Shown: piece by piece, positions 4,657-54,766 of the stretch
Position numbering within the stretch: the first letter of the stretch is position 1
Layout: every line of letters begins with the position of its first letter
Virus record (IMG/VR): IMGVR_UViG_3300046834_000025
Coordinates: 1 to 64,000 of that record
DNA length: 64,000 nt
Source of the DNA: a virus
Direction: 5' to 3' (one strand)
Notes under the pieces: model-generated
Told to the model about the DNA's origin: nothing
Seen by the model: only the letters and a program-made list of their open reading frames with translations
Database searches by the model: none
Position numbers and translations under genes: made by a program

Positions 4657-5406
4657 TCATATTACCACGGCATCTGCCAGTTGAGTGCGAGTGGCAAGGT
4701 CGAAGATCGTACTGTCTACACGGTTGCTCTTTCTGATGTTGCAGCGGAGGTGTGCTAGCTGTACGTTTGCAAGGATGTCAGGACCATCGAGGCTGATCGG
4801 TAGAACGTGATCGATCGAGGGTGAGGCAGGATCAGGATGCTTGAGCTTGAGATCGACCGGCTCACCACAGAGACCGCAGTCGAGGCCATCTCGATCAATG
4901 ATGTCTTGCCTCGTGTAAGGCTCAGTCGGAACGGCTGCCTTGTTGGCTCTGCGCTTTGCCCTCCAGGATCGCACCTTGTCGGGATTCGCTAGCTTGTATC
5001 GCTTCTGTTGTGCCAGCGCCTGCTCTTTGTTTGCAGCGTACCATGCCTGAGCTTGTACAAGTAGGCGATCTGCATTCAGTGCGTAGTAGGCTCTCTTGCA
5101 CGGTATGCACTCACCATTGGTATTACGCTCGTTCATACCACATCGGTCACAAGGTTGTGACTTCCGACATGGTATGCAAGTTCCAGCTACAGTGCGTTCT
5201 GTTGCACCGCATGTCTTGCAAGGTCGAGCCTGCAGGCAGGATACACACTTGCCATCTGACAGTCGTTCAGTTGAGCCACATTGCTTGCAAGGAGGGGGGT
5301 TGAGCCTCATCTGCTCTCGGTACGCACGATTGAAGGCTAGCTTGCAGCTTCGACATTCACCGCTCTTGTACCATTCCGTTCCCTTGCAGCGCAAACACTC
5401 TTTCAT
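4657..5406 (-). CDS. HNH endonuclease with CxxC repeats
   Basis: CGLCGE...SIDHVLP...NVQLAHLRCNIRK; ATG overlaps the terminase stop. Confidence 0.88.
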   Translation of the reverse strand: MKECLRCKGTEWYKSGECRSCKLAFNRAYREQMRLNPPPCKQCGSTERLSDGKCVSCLQARPCKTCGATERTVAGTCIPCRKSQPCDRCGMNERNTNGECIPCKRAYYALNADRLLVQAQAWYAANKEQALAQQKRYKLANPDKVRSWRAKRRANKAAVPTEPYTRQDIIDRDGLDCGLCGEPVDLKLKHPDPASPSIDHVLPISLDGPDILANVQLAHLRCNIRKSNRVDSTIFDLATRTQLADAVVI

Positions 5407-7007
5407 CCGCGCCTCGTGAACCGAGGAATCGTGGGGTGCCTGGACGGGCCGTACCGACCACGGCTGCGCTGAGGCGTGCCCGCCGTGGGAGGTGCCGCGT
5501 AGGACCTCGAGACATGTCCCTGCGGGACGAACGGAGTCGTGGTGCCGGTGCTCCACATCCGGCGCAGGGCTTGAGCGGTGCAGTCGATCTGGTCGTCGTG
5601 GGCCGAGTTCGGGAAGTTGCGAGCCTCGCTGAGGAAGTCCGGCAACCAGTCTGCCTCTGCCGGGAGGAAGACGTGCTTGCTCTCCACGGTCGGACTGATC
5701 GAACGGGCTCGTGCTTCCTTGGATTCAGTGGGGTTGATGGCGATCAGGCCGGGAATCTCAGTGGTGAGGGTGTCGATGACGGCGGTCCCGTTCGCCTTGT
5801 CCTCGATCAGGTGCTCATGCACGCCGACGCCTTCGGGCAGCCAGAGGTTGCAGGAGTTGACGAATGAGCGCATCTCGGCAATCGACTCCGTGAACGTGAG
5901 CCTCTTCCTGATCTGGCGGAGCAGGAATCGGTCGGGTCCGGCGCTAGCCCAGAGTTGGCCGACCACGTAGTCGCTCGAGGACAAGTTCTTGAATGCCATG
6001 TCCCAACTCGTGAGCACGCGGTCGAACTCTGGCAAGTCGTTCTGTGTGCGCCAGAACTGCCACCAGTCGTTCGAGAAGATGTTCCCTGATGCAGGAGAAG
6101 GAGACTGCTGAAAAAGTGCGGACCACGCGTAGCTGCCGACTGCCTGCCGGATGTCGGCCCACCGTGCGAGGGCTTCCTGCGCCGTCTCGATCACGATCGG
6201 GGACAGTAGAGGCTCACCCTCCTTGCGGCCCAACACATCGTCACCTTCGGCCAGGGCTGGAAAGCTGATAACCTCCCACTGTGCGGGGTCGCCGTCATAC
6301 TCAGGGGAGAGAAGCCTGCCCACGAAATCGTCTTCGTGCCAACGAGTCTGAATAGCGATGACCAGCGACGGCGGGTGAAGACGGGTACGAGAGTTTGCAG
6401 TCCACCAGTCCCAGACGAAGTTTCGGATCGTCGGGCTGTGCGCATCAGCGAAGTCTTTCGTGATATCGTCGAGCACCATTACCTTTGCACCACGACCAGT
6501 GACACTCTCTCGGATTGAGCGACTCAAGACGACACCACGACGGTCGATGGTTTGGCCGTCCTTGACGCCCTTCAAGGCCGGTCGCTGGACCTCCCACTCT
6601 TTTGCTGCGCCTGCGTCCTTGGCGACTTGTAGGTCGAGGGAAGGCCCGTTGACGTCGATTGCGTTTCTGATCTGTCTGCCCCACCCTGCAGCAAGAGACG
6701 GATCGTGGGACAGCAGCATGATCTCCCAGGACGGGTGCTTGTGCAGCACCCATAAAGGTAGGTACACACTGGTAAGCATGGACTTGCCCGTCCTCGGGGG
6801 GAGACTCACTGCAAGATAACGACTCTTGCCTTGCTCGACATCGTGAAGCGCTGCGGCCAGCCGGTCAGACAAGTACTTGAGATGGTCGCGAACGACGTAG
6901 CCGCTGTCCAAGGACAGGGCTAGCTCGAGGGGGTTGGACCAGGTTTGCTTGGTTCCCAACTGAGAGAAGATCTCCTCTTGGAGGGAATCGATCCAATCAG
7001 CGCTCAC
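5403..7007 (-). CDS. terL: Terminase large subunit
   Basis: PPRTGKS Walker A, VLDD Walker B, TRWHEDD, SWDMAFK, IEDKANG, HDDQID nuclease motifs. Confidence 0.93.
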   Translation of the reverse strand: MSADWIDSLQEEIFSQLGTKQTWSNPLELALSLDSGYVVRDHLKYLSDRLAAALHDVEQGKSRYLAVSLPPRTGKSMLTSVYLPLWVLHKHPSWEIMLLSHDPSLAAGWGRQIRNAIDVNGPSLDLQVAKDAGAAKEWEVQRPALKGVKDGQTIDRRGVVLSRSIRESVTGRGAKVMVLDDITKDFADAHSPTIRNFVWDWWTANSRTRLHPPSLVIAIQTRWHEDDFVGRLLSPEYDGDPAQWEVISFPALAEGDDVLGRKEGEPLLSPIVIETAQEALARWADIRQAVGSYAWSALFQQSPSPASGNIFSNDWWQFWRTQNDLPEFDRVLTSWDMAFKNLSSSDYVVGQLWASAGPDRFLLRQIRKRLTFTESIAEMRSFVNSCNLWLPEGVGVHEHLIEDKANGTAVIDTLTTEIPGLIAINPTESKEARARSISPTVESKHVFLPAEADWLPDFLSEARNFPNSAHDDQIDCTAQALRRMWSTGTTTPFVPQGHVSRSYAAPPTAGTPQRSRGRYGPSRHPTIPRFTRRG

Positions 7008-12633: not shown

Positions 12634-12919
12634 CGTTGTCCTCTCCCAACAGACCGTCGATGAACGAGAGCAGGATGTCGGCAAGCTCAGGACAGTTGCC
12701 GAACGACGCACCAGGAATCCACGGGTGTCGCTTACCGTCGATGCCGATGTAGTCGAGGTTCGCTCGCGCGTGCCGAAGAGCCCATTCGAGTTTCGAGTGG
12801 TGGCCGATCGGAAAGAAGTCGGTCTCCAGGTCGAACGGTCCAGGTGCGACCGGCGTGCGGGTGATCAACAGACCGGGCTTGCCTTCGACGGTTGAGACAG
12901 ACCAGGAGTTCGCGCTCAT
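12608..12919 (-). CDS. Hypothetical protein
   Basis: Preceded by GAGAGGAAACCG start-associated sequence. Confidence 0.65.
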   Translation of the reverse strand: MSANSWSVSTVEGKPGLLITRTPVAPGPFDLETDFFPIGHHSKLEWALRHARANLDYIGIDGKRHPWIPGASFGNCPELADILLSFIDGLLGEDNGGDQEEPR

Positions 12920-12939
12920 CGGTTTCCTCTCAAGAGATG

Positions 12940-12978
12940 GCCGGTCCCCTGCCCTGTGACAGAGGGCAGGGGACCGGC
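12940..12978. terminator. GC-rich hairpin (terminator or processing site)
   Basis: GCCGGTCCCCTGCCCT / AGGGCAGGGGACCGGC 16-bp stem; no U-tract. Confidence 0.55.
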
Positions 12979-13037
12979 TCTGCAACCCGTGGTAGCTCAC
13001 CGCCTCTGTGTACGGACGGGCCTCACCGTGGGTTGTT

Positions 13038-13109
13038 CTAGAGGACGGCCACCAGCCACACGATCAGGCAGATGGCGACCAGGACGCCGACGATGGTCCA
13101 GATGTTCAT
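13038..13109 (-). CDS. 23-aa single-TM peptide
   Basis: MNIWTIVGVLVAICLIVWLVAVL; TGATG coupling. Confidence 0.5.
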   Translation of the reverse strand: MNIWTIVGVLVAICLIVWLVAVL

Positions 13110-13393
13110 CAGAGAACGTCGTCCTGCTGCTCCGCCGACTGGTCCGGCGAAACGAGGTCCGGGTGCGCCTGCAGGAACGCGACACGCTTCTCAGCGGCGG
13201 TGACGGCGGCGTCGGCGGAGATGACCTCGTCCTTCTTCTCGAGCAGGATGCGCTCGTACTTCTCGATCAGCGCGGGGTTCTCCGCGTCGATGCGCTCCTT
13301 GCGCTTGCGCGCCGTCTCGAGCACACGCTGCGCGGTCTCGAGCTCGTCCTGCGCGCGCTGCTGCGGGGTCCGGCGTTCCCTGGTGTTGGCCAC
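13109..13393 (-). CDS. Coiled-coil hypothetical protein, first gene of the leftward operon
   Basis: GTG with AGAGGAG RBS; TATGAT -10 at 13428-13433. Confidence 0.65.
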   Translation of the reverse strand: MANTRERRTPQQRAQDELETAQRVLETARKRKERIDAENPALIEKYERILLEKKDEVISADAAVTAAEKRVAFLQAHPDLVSPDQSAEQQDDVL

Positions 13394-13480
13394 CCTGATC
13401 TCTCCTCTGATTGATTCCGTTTGATACATCATACCGCGACCGGTGCGCTTTCGCTGCAGTTTCGCCGACCTCGATACACC

Positions 13481-13509
13481 TCGACAGTTCTTCCGGCTCA
13501 CGGTAGTTT
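13481..13509 (+). promoter_or_regulatory. SigA-like promoter of the ncRNA candidate
   Basis: TCGACA-N17-TAGTTT. Confidence 0.5.
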
Positions 13510-13515
13510 GCCGTC

Positions 13516-14075
13516 CTCGTGCCCGTAGGTGACGGTCTCTCTGCCGGTCTCCTGACGGTGGTGGTGGCCGGTCGCTACCGTCGGGCCGGGTCCAGAGATC
13601 GGCACGTAGGGCCAGACGGTAGGCTGGCACCTCTGTGCCTGGCCGCAACCTACTAAAGACCGCGTGCTCTGCGGGCTGCTCTCGCGACCGAGCACGGTCT
13701 GCTCTCGCTACCGGCAGGCCGGTCGCAAAGGCACCGCGCGGCGAAACGCCGCAGGCGTGCCGCTCTCGCGGGCGGGTGTACCCTGGTGCACGAAAGAACG
13801 ACTGACCGCTCTCTGGCAGAGACGGCAACCTCTGGCCACTCTGGGCCAGTTATGCCGTCTCGTCGAGAGGCCGGTCTGTATCAGCGACCGAGCACGGACG
13901 CCGTTGATCTTGAGCGCGGGCTCCTGGTACAGAGTGGCCGTAGGCGGGCATCTCTGGACCTGGACGGTTCGCGCGGTGTGCAAAGACGCGGCATGCCCGA
14001 GGCACGGCAGCCCGACCAGGTGCCACCACCGGTGGACAGAGGTGCAACTCGGCACGGTGACAGTCTGTGCCGAAG
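13516..14075 (+). ncRNA. Candidate large structured RNA (~560 nt), unknown family
   Basis: Nested long-range helices and local hairpins with G-U pairs on the plus strand; no credible CDS. Confidence 0.5.
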
Positions 14076-14137
14076 TACCGGCTGTTCGGCCTCAGTGTCG
14101 AGGCACAAGGTTGCGGAACTTGTTTCCTCGCGCCGAG

Positions 14138-14548
14138 ACCCGTTGTCCAGCTTTCAGTTTGGTTGTTGTTGGCGCGCAACGCCGTCCCGACCAGGTGGGA
14201 GTCCCGTGGGAGTGGGAAGACACTGGGAACAGTCCCGACCGTTCCAAATCGATTCTTATTCTTATCGATGAAAATTTAAATCGAATCTGCGTCCAACCAA
14301 TCTAATCCCACACACTCCCCACTCCCACCACCCATTTCCAGGACAAACCAGGACAAAACGGATCGTTTACTTTTCGATGGTGTACCGCCGTCGAAAGTTA
14401 TTGCACCGCAGTGAAATATACGCGCGGCGAAATCGGCTGCGACAGAAGCGACCGGCGCTTGATTCTAAGCGACCGGCGCTTGATTCTAAGCGACCGGCGC
14501 TTAAACCCGTTGTCCAGCATCCAGTTTGGTGGTTGTTGGCGCGCAACG
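14138..14548. repeat. Origin-like region: 44-bp direct repeat, GTGGGAGT inverted motifs, AT-rich core, 21-bp tandem repeats
   Basis: 14138-14181 vs 14505-14548 (41/44 identical); AT-rich 14247-14288; AAGCGACCGGCGCTT at 14446, 14467 and 14488. Confidence 0.7.
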
Positions 14549-14777
14549 GCTCTCGCCGTCGAGGTTTCTTCGCGAGTGGCGGTGGTCCGGCTGGCTGGCG
14601 GCGTGCTGATTTTGGGGGCTCTGCCAGGTTCTCGGCAGTCCGGTTCACTCCCCCACAGTCAACCACGGTGGGAGTCGATGGAAGTCCTTTGCAACCGAAC
14701 CACCCTCAAACCGTCATTTCACGGTTGTTAGTCCCGCAACCCCGCGAGCCCCGAACCACTCCCACACAAACCCCTGA

Positions 14778-17297
14778 TCAGAGCAACTTCGTGTTTGTGT
14801 CCACGATCTGCCACAGAGCCGTGTTCGACTTCTTCCCTGCATCTCGCACAGACAGCCCTCCGGCCCAACGGCCTTCACGGTACCGGAACCACTTCCCCAA
14901 CGTCTTGGCTGTTGAGGTGTGGTTGCCTCGCTTCGCGAGCACGTCCTCCGGCAACGCTTCCTCCGGCAGACCGCCTTCCAACCCCACACTGTCGAGCAGC
15001 TTCGCGACAGTGAACGGCTTGTCTCCGCACACCAGGTACGCCGCCTGCAGGAAGCTGCCCCACTCTTCTTCGTCCTCGAGCCCGGTCTCCCGGATCGAGT
15101 CCGGGTGGTTGACCCGTCCAACAAGCCCCGCGTGCTGCAGGATCGAGTCGCAGACCTGCTGCCACACTGCAAACGAGTCCGACCGTGCCGCCTCCACGAG
15201 AGGCCGACCGGCCACGACCCAGTCAGACACCACACCGAGCAGCGCAGCGAGCAGCCGACCACGGTTCGCCTCGACCCAACCCTCAAGGTCCGGGTGCAGG
15301 AAGTCGACCCGTGTCTCCGGGTGTTCCATCCTGGGATCGATCGTGACCCAGATCGTCCGGCGTTTCAGGTCTCCCCCGAGAGCCAGGTTGTTGCCCGTGA
15401 TCGTCCAGAGCCGGTCGTTCCGCATCGTTCGGTCTTCCGTGCGACCGAGAATCCGGTCTGTCCACTCGCGTGACGTCAACAGGCCGTCCAGAACAGCCGA
15501 ACGCAGCACGCCTGCCATGTTGTCGAACGTCACGACCGGCGCAGAAGTTGTATCCAGGATGGCCGTGATCTGCTTTCTCAGTTCCGCAACGTCGCGCGGC
15601 ATCTCCGACCGAAACACGCCGCCGTGGATCAGCCGCATCACAGAGGTACAGAGCGACTTGCCAGCACCGGGCTGAGGTGCGCCGACAGCGATCAGCGGGT
15701 ACGGTGGAGGCACTAACAGCCGAAGAACAGGCGTCAACAACGCCGCCAAGTAGTTTGCCTTGTCGTGCTCCGTTTGGAACGGGAAGTCCACCACCAGTTC
15801 CTCGAGCAACCCTAAACCGCCGTGTCTCGCAAGGTCAACCTCGAGCCCTTCGGGCGGCAAGTACAGAGTCCGTGTGTCTTGGTCGTATCCCGGCTTGTCC
15901 AGGATCGAACCGTCCTTCCGCACCAACGGAGTGTGCGTGATCGCTTCGAGATCGCGAACGGCTCGAAGCTCATCCGGCGCAGCGAGGAACATCGAGAACA
16001 CTTGAGTGGGAAAGACCGCTCGAACACGCTCGCCGCCCTTCCGCATCCGATAGACCTTGATCTTCTTCGCGACGAAGCGTGCAGCAAGAGCAGCCTCGTT
16101 CAGCCGTCGAACCTGTGCTGGCCCGTCGTCGCCGTCCTTCGGTGGCTCGTATCCATTCTCGCCGACTCTCGGCGTGTGCACCAGATCGAACCCTCTTCGG
16201 AACACGCCACCGTGCCGTGATCCCGGCATCCCCAACGTCATGATCAGCCACTCGGCAGCGTCGACGGCGTTCGTGACATCGACCTCGTGCGGGTTCGGTC
16301 CCGTCCGAACCGTCGTCCCGTCTCCCTGATCCGCGTCATCGTCCCACGCCTCGAAATCGTTCTCGACCGTTGGGCGTCCAGGCCCGACCTCATCCGCCTT
16401 CCGGCGTGCGCGTTCCGTGACATACTGGTGCTCCGACCAAGTCCACGGCTCGTTGCCCTTGGCCCGCTGTGCCGCGTGCCACATCGGCGTTTCGACCTCT
16501 TGCAGATCGAGGCACCCGCCGTCGACCAACTGATACAGGGTCACCATCATCGCGAACAGAGCGGAGTTCCGTCCGGCGAACTCCTCGCCCGTGTCCTTGC
16601 GTTGCAATGTCTCAAGCTGCTTGATGTACTTCTTCAGGATGCCGTGCGCGCGTTCGACTTGCCTTTCTGTCGGTTCGCTGTCTTCGTCGAAGTCTGTCTC
16701 GAGGGCACTCTTGCCCGCCTGCACCGTTGCAAGCCGTTCCGTGATGCCTGTCGAGTCCGCGATCGCGAGCCAGTCGTCCGCAACCAGGTACGCGCCGTCG
16801 AAGACACGGTACTGGAACGCTGACTCGTTCGCTGCTGGCCCGTACATCATCCGTGCCGGTTCGGCGCACGAGAGATCGAACTGCCCGACACCATGTTGCT
16901 CCATGAGAGCCCACACGATCCGGGTGTACTCTCCTGGCTCAACGTCTCTGTCCAGGGGCAGATGGATTCGGTACCGAGGGTTGACATCTGTGTGCGAGAA
17001 GGTTGTGTGCCAGACGAAAGCTGTTCCGTCTCGTGCCCGTTCAAAACCCTCGATGAACTCGAGCCCTGCTCTGTCAGCGTCCAGGTGAACGATCGACCGT
17101 GAGCGAACATTCGCAACAAGTTTGCGAGGCCCGGACAGATCGCCACCGAAGAACCCGTCGCACTCTTTATCTGCGGCAGGCTGGTCAAGATGAAGTAGCT
17201 CGACAAACTCATTCCAGGACAGATCGTGCCCTATCCAGTTTTTCGAGATCGCCGCTGGTGCATCTGCCGTCGCGACGTGGAATAGCCTCGCACTCAT
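14778..17297 (-). CDS. DNA primase/helicase
   Basis: LDAD...HTTFSH...PRYRIHLPL primase-like N-terminus; C-terminal P-loop QPGAGKS and VTFDN. Confidence 0.8.
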   Translation of the reverse strand: MSARLFHVATADAPAAISKNWIGHDLSWNEFVELLHLDQPAADKECDGFFGGDLSGPRKLVANVRSRSIVHLDADRAGLEFIEGFERARDGTAFVWHTTFSHTDVNPRYRIHLPLDRDVEPGEYTRIVWALMEQHGVGQFDLSCAEPARMMYGPAANESAFQYRVFDGAYLVADDWLAIADSTGITERLATVQAGKSALETDFDEDSEPTERQVERAHGILKKYIKQLETLQRKDTGEEFAGRNSALFAMMVTLYQLVDGGCLDLQEVETPMWHAAQRAKGNEPWTWSEHQYVTERARRKADEVGPGRPTVENDFEAWDDDADQGDGTTVRTGPNPHEVDVTNAVDAAEWLIMTLGMPGSRHGGVFRRGFDLVHTPRVGENGYEPPKDGDDGPAQVRRLNEAALAARFVAKKIKVYRMRKGGERVRAVFPTQVFSMFLAAPDELRAVRDLEAITHTPLVRKDGSILDKPGYDQDTRTLYLPPEGLEVDLARHGGLGLLEELVVDFPFQTEHDKANYLAALLTPVLRLLVPPPYPLIAVGAPQPGAGKSLCTSVMRLIHGGVFRSEMPRDVAELRKQITAILDTTSAPVVTFDNMAGVLRSAVLDGLLTSREWTDRILGRTEDRTMRNDRLWTITGNNLALGGDLKRRTIWVTIDPRMEHPETRVDFLHPDLEGWVEANRGRLLAALLGVVSDWVVAGRPLVEAARSDSFAVWQQVCDSILQHAGLVGRVNHPDSIRETGLEDEEEWGSFLQAAYLVCGDKPFTVAKLLDSVGLEGGLPEEALPEDVLAKRGNHTSTAKTLGKWFRYREGRWAGGLSVRDAGKKSNTALWQIVDTNTKLL

Positions 17298-17326
17298 CGC
17301 GAGCGGCACAAGCAAATCGTGAGCAT
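17294..17326 (-). CDS. 10-aa leader ORF coupled to the primase gene
   Basis: MLTICLCRSR after AGAGGGAAACCGAA; its TGA overlaps the primase ATG. Confidence 0.4.
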   Translation of the reverse strand: MLTICLCRSR

Positions 17327-17504
17327 TTCGGTTTCCCTCTCGTTGACGGTCGGTTTACAGCGATCCTACCAGTATACCCCCGCCGTCCCCGAAATGCTGC
17401 AGTTCCCACAAACCTCGACTATTCGTTTTGCTGCGGAACCCGACCTCCACAGGTTACAATGGTCGAAGTACACCACACGCCGACCAGGAAGGCACGACCT
17501 CACG

Positions 17505-18440
17505 ATGCCAGACAACGACTACCCTCTTGCCGACAGCGGTGATCGCACACCGCTGCATGGAGGCGCGATGCGCGACCGGCCACGAGGCAAAGGTCGGTTC
17601 GACTTGATCAGCCCGATCTTCCTGCAGGACCTTGCTCTCCTGATGGAGAAGGGTGCCGACAAGTACGCCGTGCGGAACTGGGAGCGTGGGTACTCGATCT
17701 CGCTCTGTGCCGACAGCGCGATGCGCCACCTGACGCAGTTCCTCGCAGGTGACGACACCGAGGACCACGTCATCCAGGCCGCGTGGAACCTGATGGTGAT
17801 ACACGCGATTCGGCGCATGGTCGAGCAGGGCAAGCTCCCCAAAGAACTGGCGGAGGGGTATGTCCCGCTTCACGTCGTGAACCCGATCACCGGCTCCATT
17901 TCGCACGACGGCGAGACGTATTCCAACAATGCCGACATCCCCGGTATCGAAGAAGACCCGACTACCCTTCTGGTGACCGAGGGAACGCCTTCTCTCGACG
18001 GCAGATTCATCGAGCCGAACGCGGTTCTCTGGGACGGCAATGAGGTACCGATCATCGCCTACCAGGGTGGCCGCCAGTACAACATGGGCCGTGCGACCGA
18101 CATCCGGCGCACGCCGACCGGCGAGATTCGAGCCGTGATCTTGCTCAAGGACGAGCCTGCCGACACGCCGACCTATGGCGCGTACCTGACCGGCTTGACT
18201 ACGCACACGAACGCAGACAACGTGATCGTCATCGAGACTGCAACACTCTTTGCCGTCTCCATGACCCTTGCCCCGCGATACGGTGCGCAGTCGCAGTGTC
18301 GGCTCTGCAAGGACGCGATCGGCTGGAACGGCTCGAGGTGGGTCGACGCCAGTGGAGACGCCGACCAGGCAGGCTTCTGCCGGGAGAGCAACGACCCTGA
18401 CCCGCAACACATCCCGAACATCGACGCGGACGGAGTCTGA
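17505..18440 (+). CDS. DUF5664 (dATP/dGTP diphosphohydrolase-like) domain fusion
   Basis: GKGRFDLI...GADKYAVRNWERG...SAMRHL...EDHVIQAAWN; TACAAT at 17455. Confidence 0.8.
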   Translation: MPDNDYPLADSGDRTPLHGGAMRDRPRGKGRFDLISPIFLQDLALLMEKGADKYAVRNWERGYSISLCADSAMRHLTQFLAGDDTEDHVIQAAWNLMVIHAIRRMVEQGKLPKELAEGYVPLHVVNPITGSISHDGETYSNNADIPGIEEDPTTLLVTEGTPSLDGRFIEPNAVLWDGNEVPIIAYQGGRQYNMGRATDIRRTPTGEIRAVILLKDEPADTPTYGAYLTGLTTHTNADNVIVIETATLFAVSMTLAPRYGAQSQCRLCKDAIGWNGSRWVDASGDADQAGFCRESNDPDPQHIPNIDADGV

Positions 18441-18444
18441 CAAG

Positions 18445-18675
18445 ATGAAGGTTCATATCGGATCTCGTGGCGGAACTTTCGACCAGAGATGCGACATGCC
18501 TGCAGTTCCGCATGTCGGAGATAAGATCATTCTGCCCGACGATGTAGGAACCGTGTTCGAAGTTACTTGGGCTCCGTTCCAAACGCACACGGAAGAGATC
18601 TTCGTGCATGTTGATCTGACGAAACCCGAGTACAACCCGCCTTCACCCAGGTGGGCAGGGTGGCCCGATGTCTGA
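18445..18675 (+). CDS. Hypothetical protein
   Basis: PAVPHVGDKI...VFEVTW beta-barrel-like segment. Confidence 0.6.
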   Translation: MKVHIGSRGGTFDQRCDMPAVPHVGDKIILPDDVGTVFEVTWAPFQTHTEEIFVHVDLTKPEYNPPSPRWAGWPDV

Positions 18676-18761
18676 CTGGGTGATCGTGAAGCGCAAGGGA
18701 AACAAGGTGCGCTACTTCAACACCAAGACCGCTGTCTGGACCGGCTGGATGCGAGAGACCG

Positions 18762-19028
18762 ATGGCTGAGACTCCTCGACGCAGTACCGTCACCTCCACC
18801 GAGACACACGTCTCGCACACCGCCAAGCCACTCGGCAGGTCCCGAGAGAACCCGCCACACCTCGGCGATCTTCGAGCGTTCGTGGCCGCGTGCGAGGGTC
18901 TGCCGGACGACCTATCTGTCTACATCAACAACGGCTCTCTGGACGAGGGTGGACGGCGTAACATCACCTTCTTTGTCCGGCATCGAGTCACGGACGGCAC
19001 CGAGGAAGCGGAGCCGGTCGATGTCTAG
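18762..19028 (+). CDS. Hypothetical protein
   Basis: 88 aa, in operon. Confidence 0.6.
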   Translation: MAETPRRSTVTSTETHVSHTAKPLGRSRENPPHLGDLRAFVAACEGLPDDLSVYINNGSLDEGGRRNITFFVRHRVTDGTEEAEPVDV

Positions 19029-19284
19029 CTTGCAGTACCTCACCGTGTTCGGGTGGGTGGTCGGCCACGGCAACATGGCCTTGCCAGAGCCGAAGAAGTA
19101 CCTCGACAAGCTGTACGCTGGCAAGGGCATCTACGGGCGGTTCGTCGACGACGGCGGTGTCCCAACATACCCAACAAACCCACGACCTGACCCGATACCG
19201 AGAGGAAAGGTCCCGATCACCCGCATCGCGGCCTGCATCCATTGCAACCAACCGCACTCGAAACCGTTCGAGTGCCTTCTGTAA
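19021..19284 (+). CDS. Hypothetical protein
   Basis: C-terminal CIHCNQPH. Confidence 0.55.
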   Translation: MSSLQYLTVFGWVVGHGNMALPEPKKYLDKLYAGKGIYGRFVDDGGVPTYPTNPRPDPIPRGKVPITRIAACIHCNQPHSKPFECLL

Positions 19285-19297
19285 GGAGAACCCTACC

Positions 19298-19525
19298 GTG
19301 GCTACGCCCGCGAACCCTGTCATGATGGCTGTCGGCAAGCTTGCTCTCGCGCAACGGCGAGACCGCTACGACCCTGCCAAGGTCGCCGACGCTCGAAACG
19401 AGTTGGTGGCTGTCAAGCTCGAGCGAGAGATCTTGCGCGCCATCAATCCCGAATCCAGTTCCGACTACGAGCCGCTGCGCCAGGAGGACCGGGCACGGCT
19501 TGCCGACATTCTGTTGAACGGCTGA
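19298..19525 (+). CDS. Small helical protein
   Basis: AAGGAG RBS; VADARNELVAVKLE...PLRQEDRARLADILL. Confidence 0.65.
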   Translation: MATPANPVMMAVGKLALAQRRDRYDPAKVADARNELVAVKLEREILRAINPESSSDYEPLRQEDRARLADILLNG

Positions 19526-19528
19526 ACC

Positions 19529-19801
19529 GTGCTGACGCACCTGGTCGATCGCACGACCCGCGAGCCGTGCCCAACCAACGACAATGCGCTCTGCACGATC
19601 ACCGATGAGGGACATCGGCACGTGTTCGCGTCAAACTGCCCGTGCGAACGGCACGAGAATACGAACGCACGCTGCACGTGCTTCTGTCCTCCGAAGGAGC
19701 ACGTACCGGAGCTATGCCGGAGATGTGGTGGTCGCGTAGAGACCATGATCCGGCGTGGTACCGGCGTCTGCTCCGGCCCGTGTGCAGACACAGTACCCTG
19801 A
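19529..19801 (+). CDS. Cys-rich Zn-finger protein
   Basis: Many C/H pairs, CRRCG. Confidence 0.55.
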   Translation: MLTHLVDRTTREPCPTNDNALCTITDEGHRHVFASNCPCERHENTNARCTCFCPPKEHVPELCRRCGGRVETMIRRGTGVCSGPCADTVP

Positions 19802-19971
19802 AGAACTTGCCGTGAAGGCGTCAACGCGTACGAATCGAGGTCAATCATGGAGGGACCGCGCGAAGGACGCCCACAAGGGAGCACGACAAAAGGGCCTGGA
19901 TCTCGAGCCTGCCTTCCGTGCATCATCCCGGCGTACCTGCGCCTTCACGGCCACCTATCCCAGAGTGGCCA

Positions 19972-20072
19972 GAGGTTGCCACCTCTGGACCTCGTGGGCC
20001 TTTCTGGTACCCTGACCATAGGGTGCCCTCGTTCGGTCGACTCCGGCAAAACGACAGGTCGCGTGGAAGGAA
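19972..20072. repeat. 101-bp intergenic repeat, copy A
   Basis: 85/101 identical to 31395-31495; internal hairpins. Confidence 0.9.
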
Positions 20073-20146
20073 GCTTTCGGTGCCCTCTGTCGCCCTGTCC
20101 CGCAACCCCGATTTTGATCATGAAAAAGTGCCCCTGATCAGCGGAG

Positions 20147-20175
20147 TTGCGTACTTTCCAAGTACATGGTATACT
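20147..20175 (+). promoter_or_regulatory. SigA-type promoter
   Basis: TTGCGT-N17-TATACT with extended TG; GTACTT/AAGTAC inverted repeat in the spacer. Confidence 0.75.
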
Positions 20176-20354
20176 GAGAACTCGACACCACACCTGCCGC
20201 TGCTCAGCGTGCACTGATCTCCGCTGCCGTTTGAGTGATCTTCTGGCCGGAGGGTACAGAAAGCCCTCCGGCCAGCCGATAGGAGGATCATGACCACCTC
20301 GCAGCGCCACCCGCGCATCTCGTCCGGCAAGACCTGGCAGTAAGGGAGAGCATC

Positions 20355-20585
20355 ATGGAACTGTTTGCGATCATCCGTCTCGACACCAACAAGCTGGTGT
20401 GGGCATCGTACACCTCTCAGGAGGTGGCCGACGACCACGCCGTTCGTTGGGCCGTGTCCGTGGGCATGATCAGCCTGCTGTCCGGCCAGGAACTCGTTGA
20501 CCACCTGGTCGACAACATGGACGAGTACGCGGGCCACCACGGTAGCCCGAAGAACGTCTACGGCGACCTGGACGTGACCCTGTGA
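20355..20585 (+). CDS. Hypothetical protein
   Basis: 76 aa, RBS present. Confidence 0.65.
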   Translation: MELFAIIRLDTNKLVWASYTSQEVADDHAVRWAVSVGMISLLSGQELVDHLVDNMDEYAGHHGSPKNVYGDLDVTL

Positions 20586-30330: not shown

Positions 30331-30457
30331 GACCTGCGCTGAAGAGGCACGCAGGATGGTCGATCACCTGACCACCGAACTCGAGAGGCTGCGAGCGCAA
30401 AACGAGCAGCTACACATCGAGATCCAGAACCCAGAGATGAGGATCGATTGGAACTGA
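30275..30457 (+). CDS. Small hypothetical protein
   Basis: CPVC...H...C followed by a coil. Confidence 0.5.
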   Translation: MSRLICPVCTAPHGTPHRKTCAEEARRMVDHLTTELERLRAQNEQLHIEIQNPEMRIDWN

Positions 30458-31005
30458 TCAAGCCGTGTCGTCGAGGTCTCCACGATCTCGCCGATACGGT
30501 CAACGTCTACGTGCAGCCAAGTACCGGCAAGCCGCAATGCAAGCGGTGCATGGCTGACCGGCGCAAGAGGAACAGGCAGCGCAAGGCAGATCAGTATGCA
30601 GCAGTTACCAAAGCCTGGAGAGAACAGAACAAAGAGAGGAATGCTGCAGTACGACGCGCCAACAAGGAGGGTGTAGCTAAGTGGAACAAGACGTATCGCC
30701 AGAACAACCCGGAGAAGTTCCAAGGGTACCAACGAAAGAGACGTGCGCTGAAGGCTAGCCTGCCTTCGGAGCCGTACACCAGGCAGGACATCATCGATCG
30801 TGATGGAACGGACTGTGGTCTCTGTGGAGAGCCTGTCGATCTTGAGCTCAAGTACCCAGATCATCTGTCGCCGTCGATCGACCACGTCATCCCGATCACC
30901 AGGCAAGGACCAGATACCCTTGCGAACGTGCAACTCGCGCACCTGATTTGCAACATACGCAAGCACAACCACCTGGAGGAGAAGGACCTTGAACGAGCGT
31001 CCTGA
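30448..31005 (+). CDS. HNH endonuclease
   Basis: CRRGLH...CKRC; nuclease domain near-identical to 4657-5406. Confidence 0.88.
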   Translation: MELIKPCRRGLHDLADTVNVYVQPSTGKPQCKRCMADRRKRNRQRKADQYAAVTKAWREQNKERNAAVRRANKEGVAKWNKTYRQNNPEKFQGYQRKRRALKASLPSEPYTRQDIIDRDGTDCGLCGEPVDLELKYPDHLSPSIDHVIPITRQGPDTLANVQLAHLICNIRKHNHLEEKDLERAS

Positions 31006-31387
31006 TTGGCATAGCTATTTCTTGATCATCGCTCAAGCCGTCGCGACCCGTGGCGAGTGCGTCAGGAGCAAGGTAGGTGCCGTGATCGTTCGCGATCAGC
31101 GCATCCTCGCGACAGGCTACAATGGCGTGGCCGCAGGAGAGCCGTCGTGCCTGGATGGCATCTGTCCGCGTGCTCAGAACCGAGTACCACACGGTACTCC
31201 TTATACTGGCGCTGGTGCCTGCATCGCCAAGCACGCCGAGATGAACGCGATCGAGGACGCAGAGCGCAGAGAGATCGATATCGAAGGTGCCTGGATGTAC
31301 CTCACGAAGGAGCCCTGTGAGCAGTGTGTCGGCCAGCTTGACGCCTACAGGCTCTCCGTCATGTGGCCGGACGACCCTACATCCTAG
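30989..31387 (+). CDS. dCMP deaminase
   Basis: RPDW-YF, VGAVIV, ATGYNG, HAEMNAI, PCEQC. Confidence 0.9.
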   Translation: MNERPDWHSYFLIIAQAVATRGECVRSKVGAVIVRDQRILATGYNGVAAGEPSCLDGICPRAQNRVPHGTPYTGAGACIAKHAEMNAIEDAERREIDIEGAWMYLTKEPCEQCVGQLDAYRLSVMWPDDPTS

Positions 31388-31394
31388 CTTGCTG

Positions 31395-31495
31395 GAGGTT
31401 GCCACCTCTGGACCTCGAGGCCCACTTGAGTACCCTCACCATAGGGTGCCCTCGTTCGGGCCACTCTGGCGTTTTGACAGGTCGCGTGGAAGGAA
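31395..31495. repeat. 101-bp intergenic repeat, copy B
   Basis: 85/101 identical to 19972-20072. Confidence 0.9.
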
Positions 31496-31666
31496 CTCCG
31501 GCAGGCCGTGCTCCCCCGTGCCCATGTTGATCATGGAAAGGGGCCAAATGGGTGATCTTCCGCCGAAAGACGCGAGGATGCTCGTGCTCTGGCCGATGAG
31601 GTAAGTGCAAGCACACACCGAGGAAGGGAGGTCGCCAGGTCACTGACCTGGTAAAACACCTGAAAG

Positions 31667-31695
31667 TTGCATTTGAGCGAGATTCATGCTATGAT
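31667..31695 (+). promoter_or_regulatory. SigA-type promoter
   Basis: TTGCAT-N17-TATGAT with extended TG; followed by GAGAACTCGA as at 20176. Confidence 0.75.
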
Positions 31696-33306: not shown

Positions 33307-33640
33307 GAACACCGGCGCAGTCAAGATGGTCACGGACCTGTTGAAGCACGAGTGGGCATCAAGGGAGGTTGGTAAAAGCGTTCTCATCAATCCCGTCATC
33401 TTCGCAGCAAAGAACAATCTCTCAGCAGAGGTAGTCACGGGTGCCTTGCAGGATATCGCTCGCCCCGGTGCACCTCACACCTGGATCACCCGTGTTGCAA
33501 AGGGTGTCTATGAGATCGTAAGCGAGCCCATGAGTGCGCGTGAAGCGAGCGGTAATACCTCGCATCACTCGCGTATCAGTGCGCTCGAAGCTGAAGTCGC
33601 AGATCTCCGTGACATCCTTAAGCGTGCTGGACTCATCTGA
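33296..33640 (+). CDS. Winged-helix-like hypothetical protein (array unit 1)
   Basis: ITRVAKGVYE wing plus coil; start-associated sequence. Confidence 0.6.
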   Translation: MNSKNTGAVKMVTDLLKHEWASREVGKSVLINPVIFAAKNNLSAEVVTGALQDIARPGAPHTWITRVAKGVYEIVSEPMSAREASGNTSHHSRISALEAEVADLRDILKRAGLI

Positions 33641-33702
33641 TCCTGCCGACCAGGATGGTGCCGGTCTTCGGAGAGACCGGCGCTGTCTGGGCCGACTGGC
33701 TC
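33636..33702. repeat. Gene-boundary hairpin repeat R1
   Basis: TCTGATCCTGCCGACCAGGATGGTGCCGGTC..GACCGGCGCTGTCTGGGCCGACTGGCTC. Confidence 0.95.
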
Positions 33703-33728: not shown

Positions 33729-34250
33729 ATGAGCAACGCCGACCGGACTCGCGAAGCGAAGCCAGCCTGCCCGTTCGACGGCGCGACCGTCCGTGACAGC
33801 AACGGACAGTGCCACTGCAGGAACGTCCTGTACCGTGAGTGGCAGAAGGACCTCTCCATCAAGGACGACATGACCCTGATCTTCAACAAGGCTCTCCTGG
33901 ACGGCGACTCGATCGAGACCGCTCTCGCTGCCGTGCGCGCCGAATTCCCTCACCTGGTTCGCACCCGGAAGATCAACGCGACGCCCACGCCCGCTGCCCC
34001 GCCTGCCGTGGTCGAGACGCCTGCCGTGGTCGAGGACGAGAAGAAGCCGACGACCGCCGAGATCATCAAGGACGAGGTGGCCGTGGAGAAGGCGGAGAAG
34101 CCTCGCTACGTCCTCGCGTTCGTGCCGTCCGGCCAGACCACGGAGTACGCTCGCAAGGACGCCGCCATCAAGGCTGGTGTGCGCTCTGGTGGCGAGTGGA
34201 CCGTCAGCTACAAGGGCAAGAAGGTCGCTCAGTCCGATGAACTGCTCTGA
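33729..34250 (+). CDS. Hypothetical protein (array unit 2)
   Basis: 173 aa with Pro/Ala linker. Confidence 0.7.
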   Translation: MSNADRTREAKPACPFDGATVRDSNGQCHCRNVLYREWQKDLSIKDDMTLIFNKALLDGDSIETALAAVRAEFPHLVRTRKINATPTPAAPPAVVETPAVVEDEKKPTTAEIIKDEVAVEKAEKPRYVLAFVPSGQTTEYARKDAAIKAGVRSGGEWTVSYKGKKVAQSDELL

Positions 34251-34307
34251 TCCTGCCGACCAGGATGGTGCCGGTCTCCGACCGGCGCTGTCTGGGCCGA
34301 CTGGCTC
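34246..34307. repeat. Gene-boundary hairpin repeat R2
   Basis: Identical to R3; differs from R1 only in the apical loop. Confidence 0.95.
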
Positions 34308-34335
34308 GATTCGAACCGAGAGAAGGAAACTTACT

Positions 34336-34647
34336 ATGAGCACCATCACCACCACCGTTCTCCCCGCCAAGCAGTCCCGTGGCACCGTTGCGATCCTCAA
34401 CACCGTGCGCTGGATCGGCACCGGCTTCCACCTCCTGATCGCCGCGATCCTCCTGCTCATGTCCCTGGTCGCGATGTTCACGGCTGACAACGGCTTCCTG
34501 GTCTTCCTCGGTGGCCTCCTCGGTGTCGGCATGACCCTCGTGTTCGGCGCGCTGTTCTACGCGACCGTGGGTTGGTTCGTCGACACGCTGAGCCAGCTCA
34601 ACCAGATCGCTGCCAACACTGCTCCCACCAGCATCACCGCTCTCTGA
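34336..34647 (+). CDS. Membrane protein (array unit 3)
   Basis: Two long hydrophobic helices. Confidence 0.75.
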   Translation: MSTITTTVLPAKQSRGTVAILNTVRWIGTGFHLLIAAILLLMSLVAMFTADNGFLVFLGGLLGVGMTLVFGALFYATVGWFVDTLSQLNQIAANTAPTSITAL

Positions 34648-34704
34648 TCCTGCCGACCAGGATGGTGCCGGTCTCCGACCGGCGCTGTCTGGGCCGACTG
34701 GCTC
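34643..34704. repeat. Gene-boundary hairpin repeat R3
   Basis: Identical to R2. Confidence 0.95.
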
Positions 34705-34738
34705 GTGATTGCACCACTCACCTCACGGAAGAGAGACC

Positions 34739-44864: not shown

Positions 44865-44885
44865 TACACCATTGAGAGGAAACCG

Positions 44886-45071
44886 ATGAGCTACCTCGAT
44901 AGACTCCTGACAGAGCCTGCCGTCAAGTGTCAGTGCCCGTCCCGCGACTCTGGTGCTGCAGCCTTCCACGGCGGCAAGCCGGACGGCTGCCCACGGGATG
45001 CCCTGGTGCCACGCGGAGTGGTCACCAGTCCAGCACTCTGTGCCGCCTGCCTGCACGGCTGCATGGACTGA
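44886..45071 (+). CDS. Small Cys-rich protein
   Basis: Exact start-associated sequence; CQC, CAAC. Confidence 0.6.
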   Translation: MSYLDRLLTEPAVKCQCPSRDSGAAAFHGGKPDGCPRDALVPRGVVTSPALCAACLHGCMD

Positions 45072-54560: not shown

Positions 54561-54766
54561 AGGCTACCACGACGGCGTAGCTGCATCAGCGACAGCACCA
54601 GAGTGGCCACCAGGGCAGCCGCCACCGTCCTGACGGCACCGGCATAGACTGCGCTGGCCGCGATCAGACCGACCACCAGGGCGACCGCCAGGAGCCGTCC
54701 GACCAGGGTGCTGATGACTTCGCGTGTCGTCAGTGCCTCTCGCCAGCCTCGAAGTTCGTCGCGCAT
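54557..54766 (-). CDS. Small membrane protein (holin-like)
   Basis: Two TM segments at the end of the tail operon. Confidence 0.55.
   Translation of the reverse strand: MRDELRGWREALTTREVISTLVGRLLAVALVVGLIAASAVYAGAVRTVAAALVATLVLSLMQLRRRGSL

Follow-up and report, generated by a model that had tools for sequence, protein, structure and literature searches.

Why do 22 nucleotides (nt) next to the origin-like region of a phage genome return as a perfect reverse complement 6.1 kb away, upstream of a rightward promoter? The locus lies within the first 64 kb (positions 1 to 64,000, hereafter the window) of the 77,833-bp IMG/VR virus record IMGVR_UViG_3300046834_000025, an uncharacterised actinobacterial-type phage with 61% GC content and an estimated completeness of 94%. 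An earlier note on this DNA had offered two readings of the match: an RNA-RNA or RNA-DNA targeting contact, or a DNA motif shared as binding site of a protein. We found that the two 22-mers belong to a small family of dyad-symmetric elements, copies of which lie beside the origin-like region and upstream of three operons. The shared binding motif fits the data best, since the family comprises at least 4-5 copies that occur in both orientations and keep their arms at a fixed 27-nt span, and these share no RNA fold. The targeting contact received little support: the 22-mers have the same sense relative to transcription and both sites are part of stable hairpins.

The inverted 22-nt match

The sequence GGCAACCTCTGGCCACTCTGGG occurs once on the plus strand, at 13824-13845, and once on the minus strand, at 19959-19980, such that the two sites are exact reverse complements. 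No further match with up to three mismatches was obtained, and none was seen in 100 dinucleotide shuffles (chance expectation 0), so that the match far exceeds chance. Allowing mismatches, it grows to 29 nt with 93% identity (27/29; 13817-13845 against 19959-19987). In a self-comparison of the genome, no other exact inverted match between remote places reached the length of the 22-mer pair. The surroundings described in the earlier note were also recovered: the first site forms the apex of a long hairpin (13801-13879), while the second overlaps repeat copy A (19972-20072) by 9 nt. To the sites of the core GGCCACTCTG listed there, 13930(-) and 31459(+), we add a third at 54599(-).

Perfect inverted matches can arise in this genome in a simple manner. 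The next-longest one, a 20-mer at 12914-12933 and 44872-44891, consists of a GC hairpin followed by TTGAGAGGAAACCGATGAGC, i.e. a ribosome binding site (RBS) with ATG start codon. Both copies have the same sense with respect to their genes, which lie on opposite strands. Because this pair is a same-sense cis element in oppositely transcribed units, a perfect inverted match alone does not imply antisense pairing here. Where gene blocks diverge, the simpler reading of such a match is a cis element, same-sense or palindromic, and not antisense targeting. A side observation concerns gene starts: the 17-nt RBS + ATG element TGAGAGGAAACCGATGA was found nine times at gene starts (12919(-), 33283, 38063, 39538, 40661, 43184, 43223, 44875 and 50651), often directly after a GC-rich hairpin, and resembles start-associated sequences of Cluster K mycobacteriophages.

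A family of dyad elements

We defined the copies of the element by aligning five stretches, named a to e, in one orientation (Table 1). The elements are roughly palindromic, 30-40 bp long, and follow the dyad CAGAG-TGGCC-N12-CTCTG with a fixed length of 27 nt. In the alignment, b, c and d all measure exactly 27 nt from CAGAG to CTCTG, and CTCTG as well as T.GC are invariant across all five copies. The arms are inverted repeats of CAGAG-(0/1)-TGGC. The spacer between them is common to b, d and e but not to a and c. As a hybrid, copy d is identical to b over its left 22 nt and to e over its right 23 nt. Inverted half-sites at a fixed spacing around a variable spacer are what characterizes operator-type sites of dimeric proteins, and b, c and d show this arrangement, with the spacer differing in c.

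The family can be recovered from part of its members. A profile built from c and d alone found b and e as the best other matches in the 78-kb genome, with E=1.4e-4 each; copy a was marginal in this search (E about 1). The family therefore rests on the aligned copies together with this leave-out profile, because k-mer counts alone are unexceptional (see below).

Copies d and e are associated with two larger modules. Copy A is 84% identical over 101 nt to copy B (31395-31495), and in both modules this block precedes a promoter. The region upstream of the late genes aligned with modules A and B only at null level outside the element, while A against B scored 87 versus 17, and was rejected as a third module copy. 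Since this homology is lacking, what is shared is a discrete element of ~35 bp rather than a larger duplication.

Gene map and position of the elements

The gene map was derived from a codon-usage gene call combined with domain searches. Genes run leftward from 13393 to 1, among them TerL (5403-7007(-)) and an HNH gene, and a second minus-strand block from 54557 onward holds tail-fibre genes; together these form the virion block. The genes between 17505 and 54560 run rightward and are replication genes, with products including a dNTP pyrophosphohydrolase domain, a SNF2 helicase, a dCMP deaminase, DUF932, a DUF2800 nuclease, an Enc34-type single-stranded DNA-binding protein and DNA polymerase A. 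Two stretches are non-coding. The first (13394-14777, 1.38 kb) contains the origin-like iteron region, and the second (19526-20354) holds copy A and an extended -10 promoter. A hidden protein gene in either stretch was rejected, there being neither codon-usage support nor a Pfam match. The -10-like TATGAT of the leftward block has no recognisable -35, and tRNA or tmRNA genes were not found. Domain searches of the whole 77.8-kb record revealed no integrase, resolvase, HTH_3 or HTH_17 domain; the phage is therefore probably lytic.

Table 1. Dyad elements, half-sites and surrounding features, in coordinates of the window.
Feature	Position	Strand	Description
Copy a (weaker)	13586-13621	minus	...CGTCTGGCCCTACGTGCCGATCTCTGGACC; left arm degenerate; ~170 nt upstream of leftward TATGAT -10
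Copy b (full)	13811-13846	minus	CCCAGAGTGGCCAGAGGTTGCCGTCTCTGCCAG; minus-strand reading CCCAGAGTGGCCAGAGGTTGCCGTCTCTG; contains 22-mer 13824-13845
Hairpin carrying copy b	13801-13879		long imperfect palindrome with b at apex; followed in minus sense by CGUUCUUUCGU
Copy c (full)	13927-13964	plus	ACAGAGTGGCCGTAGGCGGGCATCTCTGGACC; parts CAGAGTGGCC-GTAGGCGGGCAT-CTCTGGACC; arms and 27-nt span as in d, other spacer
Copy d (full)	19958-19994	plus	CCCAGAGTGGCCAGAGGTTGCCACCTCTGGACC; contains 22-mer 19959-19980; ~196 nt upstream of promoter A -10
Copy e (weaker)	31391-31418	plus	...GCTGGAGGTTGCCACCTCTGGACC; right arm and spacer only; start of module B, directly after dCMP-deaminase stop
Orphan half-site f	31459-31469	minus	GGCCACTCTGG, inside module B; homologous place in module A: GGTCGACTCCGG
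Orphan half-site g	54598-54609	plus	CCAGAGTGGCCA, within small minus-strand gene where two gene blocks converge
Orphan half-site	13626-13635	minus	CAGAGGTGCC
Orphan half-site	14037-14046	plus	CAGAGGTGCA
Module A	19972-20175	plus	101-nt conserved block, then promoter TTGCGT(20147)-N17-TGG-TATACT(20170-20175)
Module B	31395-31695	plus	101-nt block, 107-nt insertion, then promoter TTGCAT(31667)-N17-TGC-TATGAT(31690-31695)
Leftward virion-block head	13394-13433	minus	-10-like TATGAT 13433-13428, RBS GAGGAGAG, GTG start 13393
Origin-like region	14190-14777		downstream of primase-helicase gene
Primase-polymerase/helicase gene	14778-17309	minus	between sites b and d; product 843 aa

Half-site g may be a chance occurrence.

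The origin-like region is marked by inverted iterons GTGGGAG/CTCCCAC at 14194-14228 and 14306-14328, placed around a spacer of ~30% GC, and again at 14665-14677 and 14750-14765. Further repeats were noticed there: three tandem 21-nt repeats (14446-14508), each a palindrome AAGCGACCGGCGCTT followed by GATTCT, are flanked by 52-nt direct repeats of 88% identity (14130-14181 and 14497-14548). These two sets of repeats are probably part of the origin or of another protein-binding array. A second, collinear similarity links the 3' end of the primase gene with the part of module A just upstream of the -35 element; it consists of GTCCCGCAACCCCG at 14731-14744 and 20097-20110, followed by CCCCTGATCAG at 14771-14781 and 20131-20141.

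Relatives of the phage

No close relative at the nucleotide level exists in any collection searched. Comparison of both non-coding regions by blastn and of 25 kb by megablast with GenBank phages gave no match, and exact-pattern scans of IMG/VR returned nothing. A scan of genome contigs with the motif pattern yielded seven scattered matches, at or below the ~20 expected by chance. Locus searches based on the primase, carried out in viral, genome and metagenome contigs, provided relatives at 30-56% amino-acid identity only, and neither the motif nor module A/B was present in any of them. The nearest primase-helicases (40-56% identical) come from Pseudonocardia, Actinoplanes and Nocardioides elements and from metagenomes.

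The origin-like layout itself recurs in this primase-helicase family. Directly downstream of the gene one finds 2-3 tandem 9-nt iterons, a spacer of ~80-90 nt and 2-3 inverted iterons. Right after the primase match this layout was present in the relatives L003, L004, L006, L007, L011-L013, L015, L016, L019, L020 and L026, while the iteron sequence varies by element (AAACCCTGC, AAACCCCG, GTCCCGGCA, CCCAGCAGA and others).

One relative, L098, is syntenic with the window. Its primase is 56% identical, and it has a homologue of the gene at 19298-19525, with 72% nucleotide identity. Between this homologue and a TTGCGC-N17-TATGAT promoter, L098 carries a canonical terminator, i.e. a GC-rich hairpin followed by TTTT, at the position that is taken by d in the window. 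A counterpart of the link between b and d was not seen in L098, which is distant (75% GC) and whose sequence ends 1.3 kb past the primase gene. On its minus strand L098 has two copies of a core promoter (710-860 and 1880-2030) of the form AAACGCTTGCG..TGC.T.CGCAGGGGGTATGATGGT, one of them preceded by a perfect GC hairpin with TTTT terminator. Since L098 thus also possesses two core-promoter copies, duplicated early promoters seem to be a feature of the group.

Candidate sites for a common DNA-binding factor

The reading that we favour, with a probability of roughly 0.45, is that a single factor, dimeric or tetrameric, binds the copies as shared sites in double-stranded DNA. In this view b and d are two members of a small family of pseudo-palindromic sites, each built of two inverted half-sites CAGAG-(0/1 nt)-TGGC. 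With the pentamers spanning a fixed 27 nt, their centres are 22 bp apart, which corresponds to about two helical turns. Three to four sites, along with orphan half-sites, are clustered within the 600 bp that separate the origin-like region from the first leftward virion gene, and each of the duplicated rightward promoters, A and B, has a single site ~200-300 nt upstream of it. A putative factor, encoded by phage or host, would bind all of these sites and could couple the three transcription units, perhaps along with the origin nearby, for instance through looping or as an activator or silencer that works at a distance. Dyad symmetry, combined with flanking units of opposite orientation, would then account for the reverse-complement relation of b and d, while the 22/22 identity may stem from shared ancestry or gene conversion, with selection on one arm and its spacer.

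How strongly the half-sites are enriched can be judged from their counts. The pattern CAGAG.?[TC]G[GC]C has 18 matches in the genome, of which 9 fall into 1.06 kb (13394-14130, 19900-20100 and 31380-31500; 1.4% of the genome), and CAGAG.?TGGC occurs 10 times as compared to 2.5 in shuffled genomes; as the copies counted are also those from which the patterns had been derived, the enrichment is partly circular. The density of CAGAG reaches its genome maximum at 13500-14050, with 10 per 500 nt versus a mean of 1.76. The 10-mer CAGAGTGGCC occurs five times here and not at all in 1.5 Mb of related actinobacterial loci.

Besides this circularity, several points weigh against a common factor. The raw 10- and 11-mer counts are no genome-wide outliers, 199 different 10-mers being present at least five times, and copies a and e are incomplete. 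A cognate DNA-binding protein was not identified in the record, whose domain content is given above, and the small early proteins have neither Pfam domains nor a PHROG function. The only hint is the 75-aa helical protein of gene 19298-19525, encoded immediately upstream of the non-coding stretch with site d, which has a weak structural neighbour among CopG-family regulators (Atlas) at a low predicted local distance difference test score (pLDDT) of 0.58. Furthermore, 170-500 nt separate the sites from the -10 elements, a long distance for classical operators, and the identity of the spacer in b and d is not required by a half-site model.

If one factor does bind, the sites would mark the head of the virion block, two early/middle promoters and possibly the origin of an otherwise unannotated phage, and a 40-bp probe would provide a handle for fishing out the regulator. 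Repeated dyad sites are of an ordinary kind in phages; the motif itself is new.

Boundary hairpins and RNA pairing as possible alternatives

Both 22-mers are located in stable hairpins. As RNA, the hairpin around b folds with -53.8 kcal/mol on the plus strand (z -4.5) and -49.4 kcal/mol on the minus strand (z -2.9). The same 22 nt take different structural roles: they form the apex of the hairpin in b and the 5' arm of a hairpin (19959-19998) in d, and the inner hairpin of d cannot form in copy c. Therefore primary sequence and dyad are kept among the copies, and not an RNA fold.

One possibility is that the copies are same-sense boundary hairpins, i.e. terminators, insulators or processing signals that are alike by descent. 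They would be located at the 3' ends of the primase unit (b, leftward), of the 17505-19525 operon (d, rightward) and of the dCMP-deaminase operon (e, rightward). Copies a, b, d and e are indeed all oriented with local transcription. In the transcription sense only, the b hairpin is followed by CGUUCUUUCGU (UUCUUUC in the RNA) and the d hairpin by CCUUUCUGGU (CUUUCU), and the hairpin with TTTT of L098 occupies the place of d. In the CCAGAGGT/ACCTCTGG hairpin the substitutions between A and B, C-to-U and A-to-G, preserve pairing on the plus strand only, and the genome has other intergenic repeat families of the hairpin type. Terminators, however, do not have to be identical in sequence, and the position of the shared 22 nt within the hairpin differs between b and d. 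Copy c is oriented the other way, e lacks a U-rich tail, and b is found ~900 nt past the primase stop codon. The U tracts of b and d are weak, and no site was called by the terminator scan. We regard boundary hairpins as an unlikely explanation, though as the most probable one after the common factor.

Pairing in trans would involve a plus-strand non-coding RNA from ~13481-14075, the apical 22 nt of which would pair with plus-strand RNA at 19959-19980 and, e.g., open the d hairpin. The 22 perfect base pairs would provide a duplex of -49.4 kcal/mol. The 595-nt region 13481-14075 is unusually structured compared to shuffles, with z -4.5 on the plus and -3.85 on the minus strand; such folding on both strands is also expected from a cluster of DNA palindromes. 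For 19526-20146 the plus strand (z -3.1) is more structured than the minus strand (z -1.35). Opening the two hairpins, however, costs 23.4 and 19.4 kcal/mol (42.8 in total), leaving a net gain of only about -7 kcal/mol, not yet counting the initiation penalty, and neither complementary loops nor a loop-loop seed, as an accessible start of antisense pairing, were found between the two sites. Since a, b, d and e share the same sense relative to transcription, natural transcripts carry identical rather than complementary 22-mers, and complementarity therefore requires an antisense transcript. A consensus scan of 12800-17500 gave no sigma-70-type promoter and no convincing plus-strand terminator, which leaves the weak promoter TCGACA-N17-TAGTTT as the only plus-strand candidate; neither a consensus promoter nor a terminator for such an RNA was found at 13.5-14.1 kb. 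Rfam had no match in the whole window at gathering thresholds and none at E<=1 in 13300-14900 or 19400-20400, and a known RNA family was rejected accordingly. Pairing in trans would also explain one pair only, while a, c, e and the orphan half-sites would be left aside. We consider it improbable.

A cis variant makes use of the mutual complementarity of b and c (25/33, -45.5 kcal/mol), which allows alternative pairing: the complement of c within the leftward transcript would pair with b or a and form a switch before the late genes. The 600-nt structured region would then be transcribed and gate hairpin b, which resembles a terminator and precedes the late operon, and the identical module in d would let the same trans-acting RNA or RNA-binding factor link early read-through to late-gene entry. 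If true, the phage would possess a timing circuit built on a shared RNA module, yet this switch appears just as improbable as pairing in trans.

Possible replication signals and recombination

The vicinity of the primase-helicase gene suggests a further role, in which the hairpins would be exposed as single strands upon unwinding by the primase-helicase and serve as recognition or priming signals of the primase, accessory to the adjacent origin and placed on opposite strands on its two sides. Copies a, b and c are 230-600 nt from the iterons and AT-rich part of the origin-like region, beside the primase-helicase gene, and form strong hairpins on either strand. Copies a and b, left of the origin, lie on the minus strand, and d, e and g, right of it, on the plus strand, which would be the lagging-strand template of the outgoing forks. 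The direction of transcription explains these orientations equally well, however, and c and f break the strand pattern. Copies d and e are embedded in the duplicated module upstream of promoters, 6 and 17 kb away, and in the origins of the relatives we noticed iterons but no comparable pairs of hairpins. A replication signal of this type is slightly less probable still than RNA pairing.

A functionless remnant of illegitimate or homologous recombination between modules is the most doubtful of these explanations: phage genomes are mosaic, a spacer is common to b and d only and a 22/22 run at the A/B identity of 84% has a probability of ~0.02, which is small but not negligible, yet the independent copy c keeps its arms at identical spacing with another spacer, the half-sites are strongly clustered and flanking homology is missing. 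An invertible segment of the Gin/Hin/Cin type, for which the inverted sites at their distance of 6.1 kb might be taken, was rejected, as the record has no resolvase/invertase or tyrosine recombinase.

Comparison with known systems

For the favoured DNA sites of a common factor the closest described analogue is found in Cluster O mycobacteriophages, which contain 17-bp dyad-symmetric repeats TGTTCGG-N3-CCGAACA that are predicted to bind a dimeric protein and whose function is unknown (PMC4351075). In both cases the sites are short, repeated, dyad-symmetric and intergenic, and the phage is an apparently non-temperate actinobacteriophage. The phage studied here has ~5 copies instead of more than 30, and its sites extend over a much greater length (27 nt, spacer 12-17 nt) and are unrelated in sequence. 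Its copies are located by the origin and upstream of three operon heads, whereas the Cluster O repeats are distributed genome-wide.

The MerR-like Gp36 of phage D29 is a phage regulator that acts on GC-rich repeats with sites in both genome arms (PMC12266134). A likeness to these sites, and to the stoperators of Cluster A, lies in one sequence-specific factor with repeated sites that affect both arms of the genome. The sites here are dyads far upstream of promoters, in contrast to direct repeats or asymmetric 13-mers within transcription units, and a regulator gene as in those two systems was not identified in this phage. The motif thus differs from the Cluster O and D29 Gp36 sites in sequence, span, copy number and placement. 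Cluster A stoperators are dozens of asymmetric 13-bp sites that are oriented with transcription and belong to temperate phages with repressor and integrase. The phage considered here has ~5 dyad sites and no repressor-type or integrase gene in its record.

Phage P4 (ori/crr) and RSF1010 (ssiA/ssiB) resemble this locus in having a motif or hairpin repeated at two positions, on both strands, that flank or adjoin a primase-helicase gene and an iteron origin. The candidate iteron of our phage, GTGGGAG, differs from the CAGAG motif, and two of the copies are part of promoter-upstream modules. As in trans-acting antisense pairs of small RNA (sRNA) and mRNA, a structured non-coding region is here perfectly complementary to a remote site over a long stretch. 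Unlike in such pairs, no promoter or terminator defines an sRNA, both sites are enclosed in stems, and pairing does not account for the multiple copies.

Other repeats in the window

Two further similarities were noticed. An 84-nt inverted similarity of 83% between 30769-30852 and 4840-4923 joins the HNH endonuclease genes 30448-31005(+) and 4657-5136(-), which are paralogous copies. An intergenic repeat of 62-67 nt is present in three copies (33636-33702, 34245-34308 and 34642-34705), two of which are identical.

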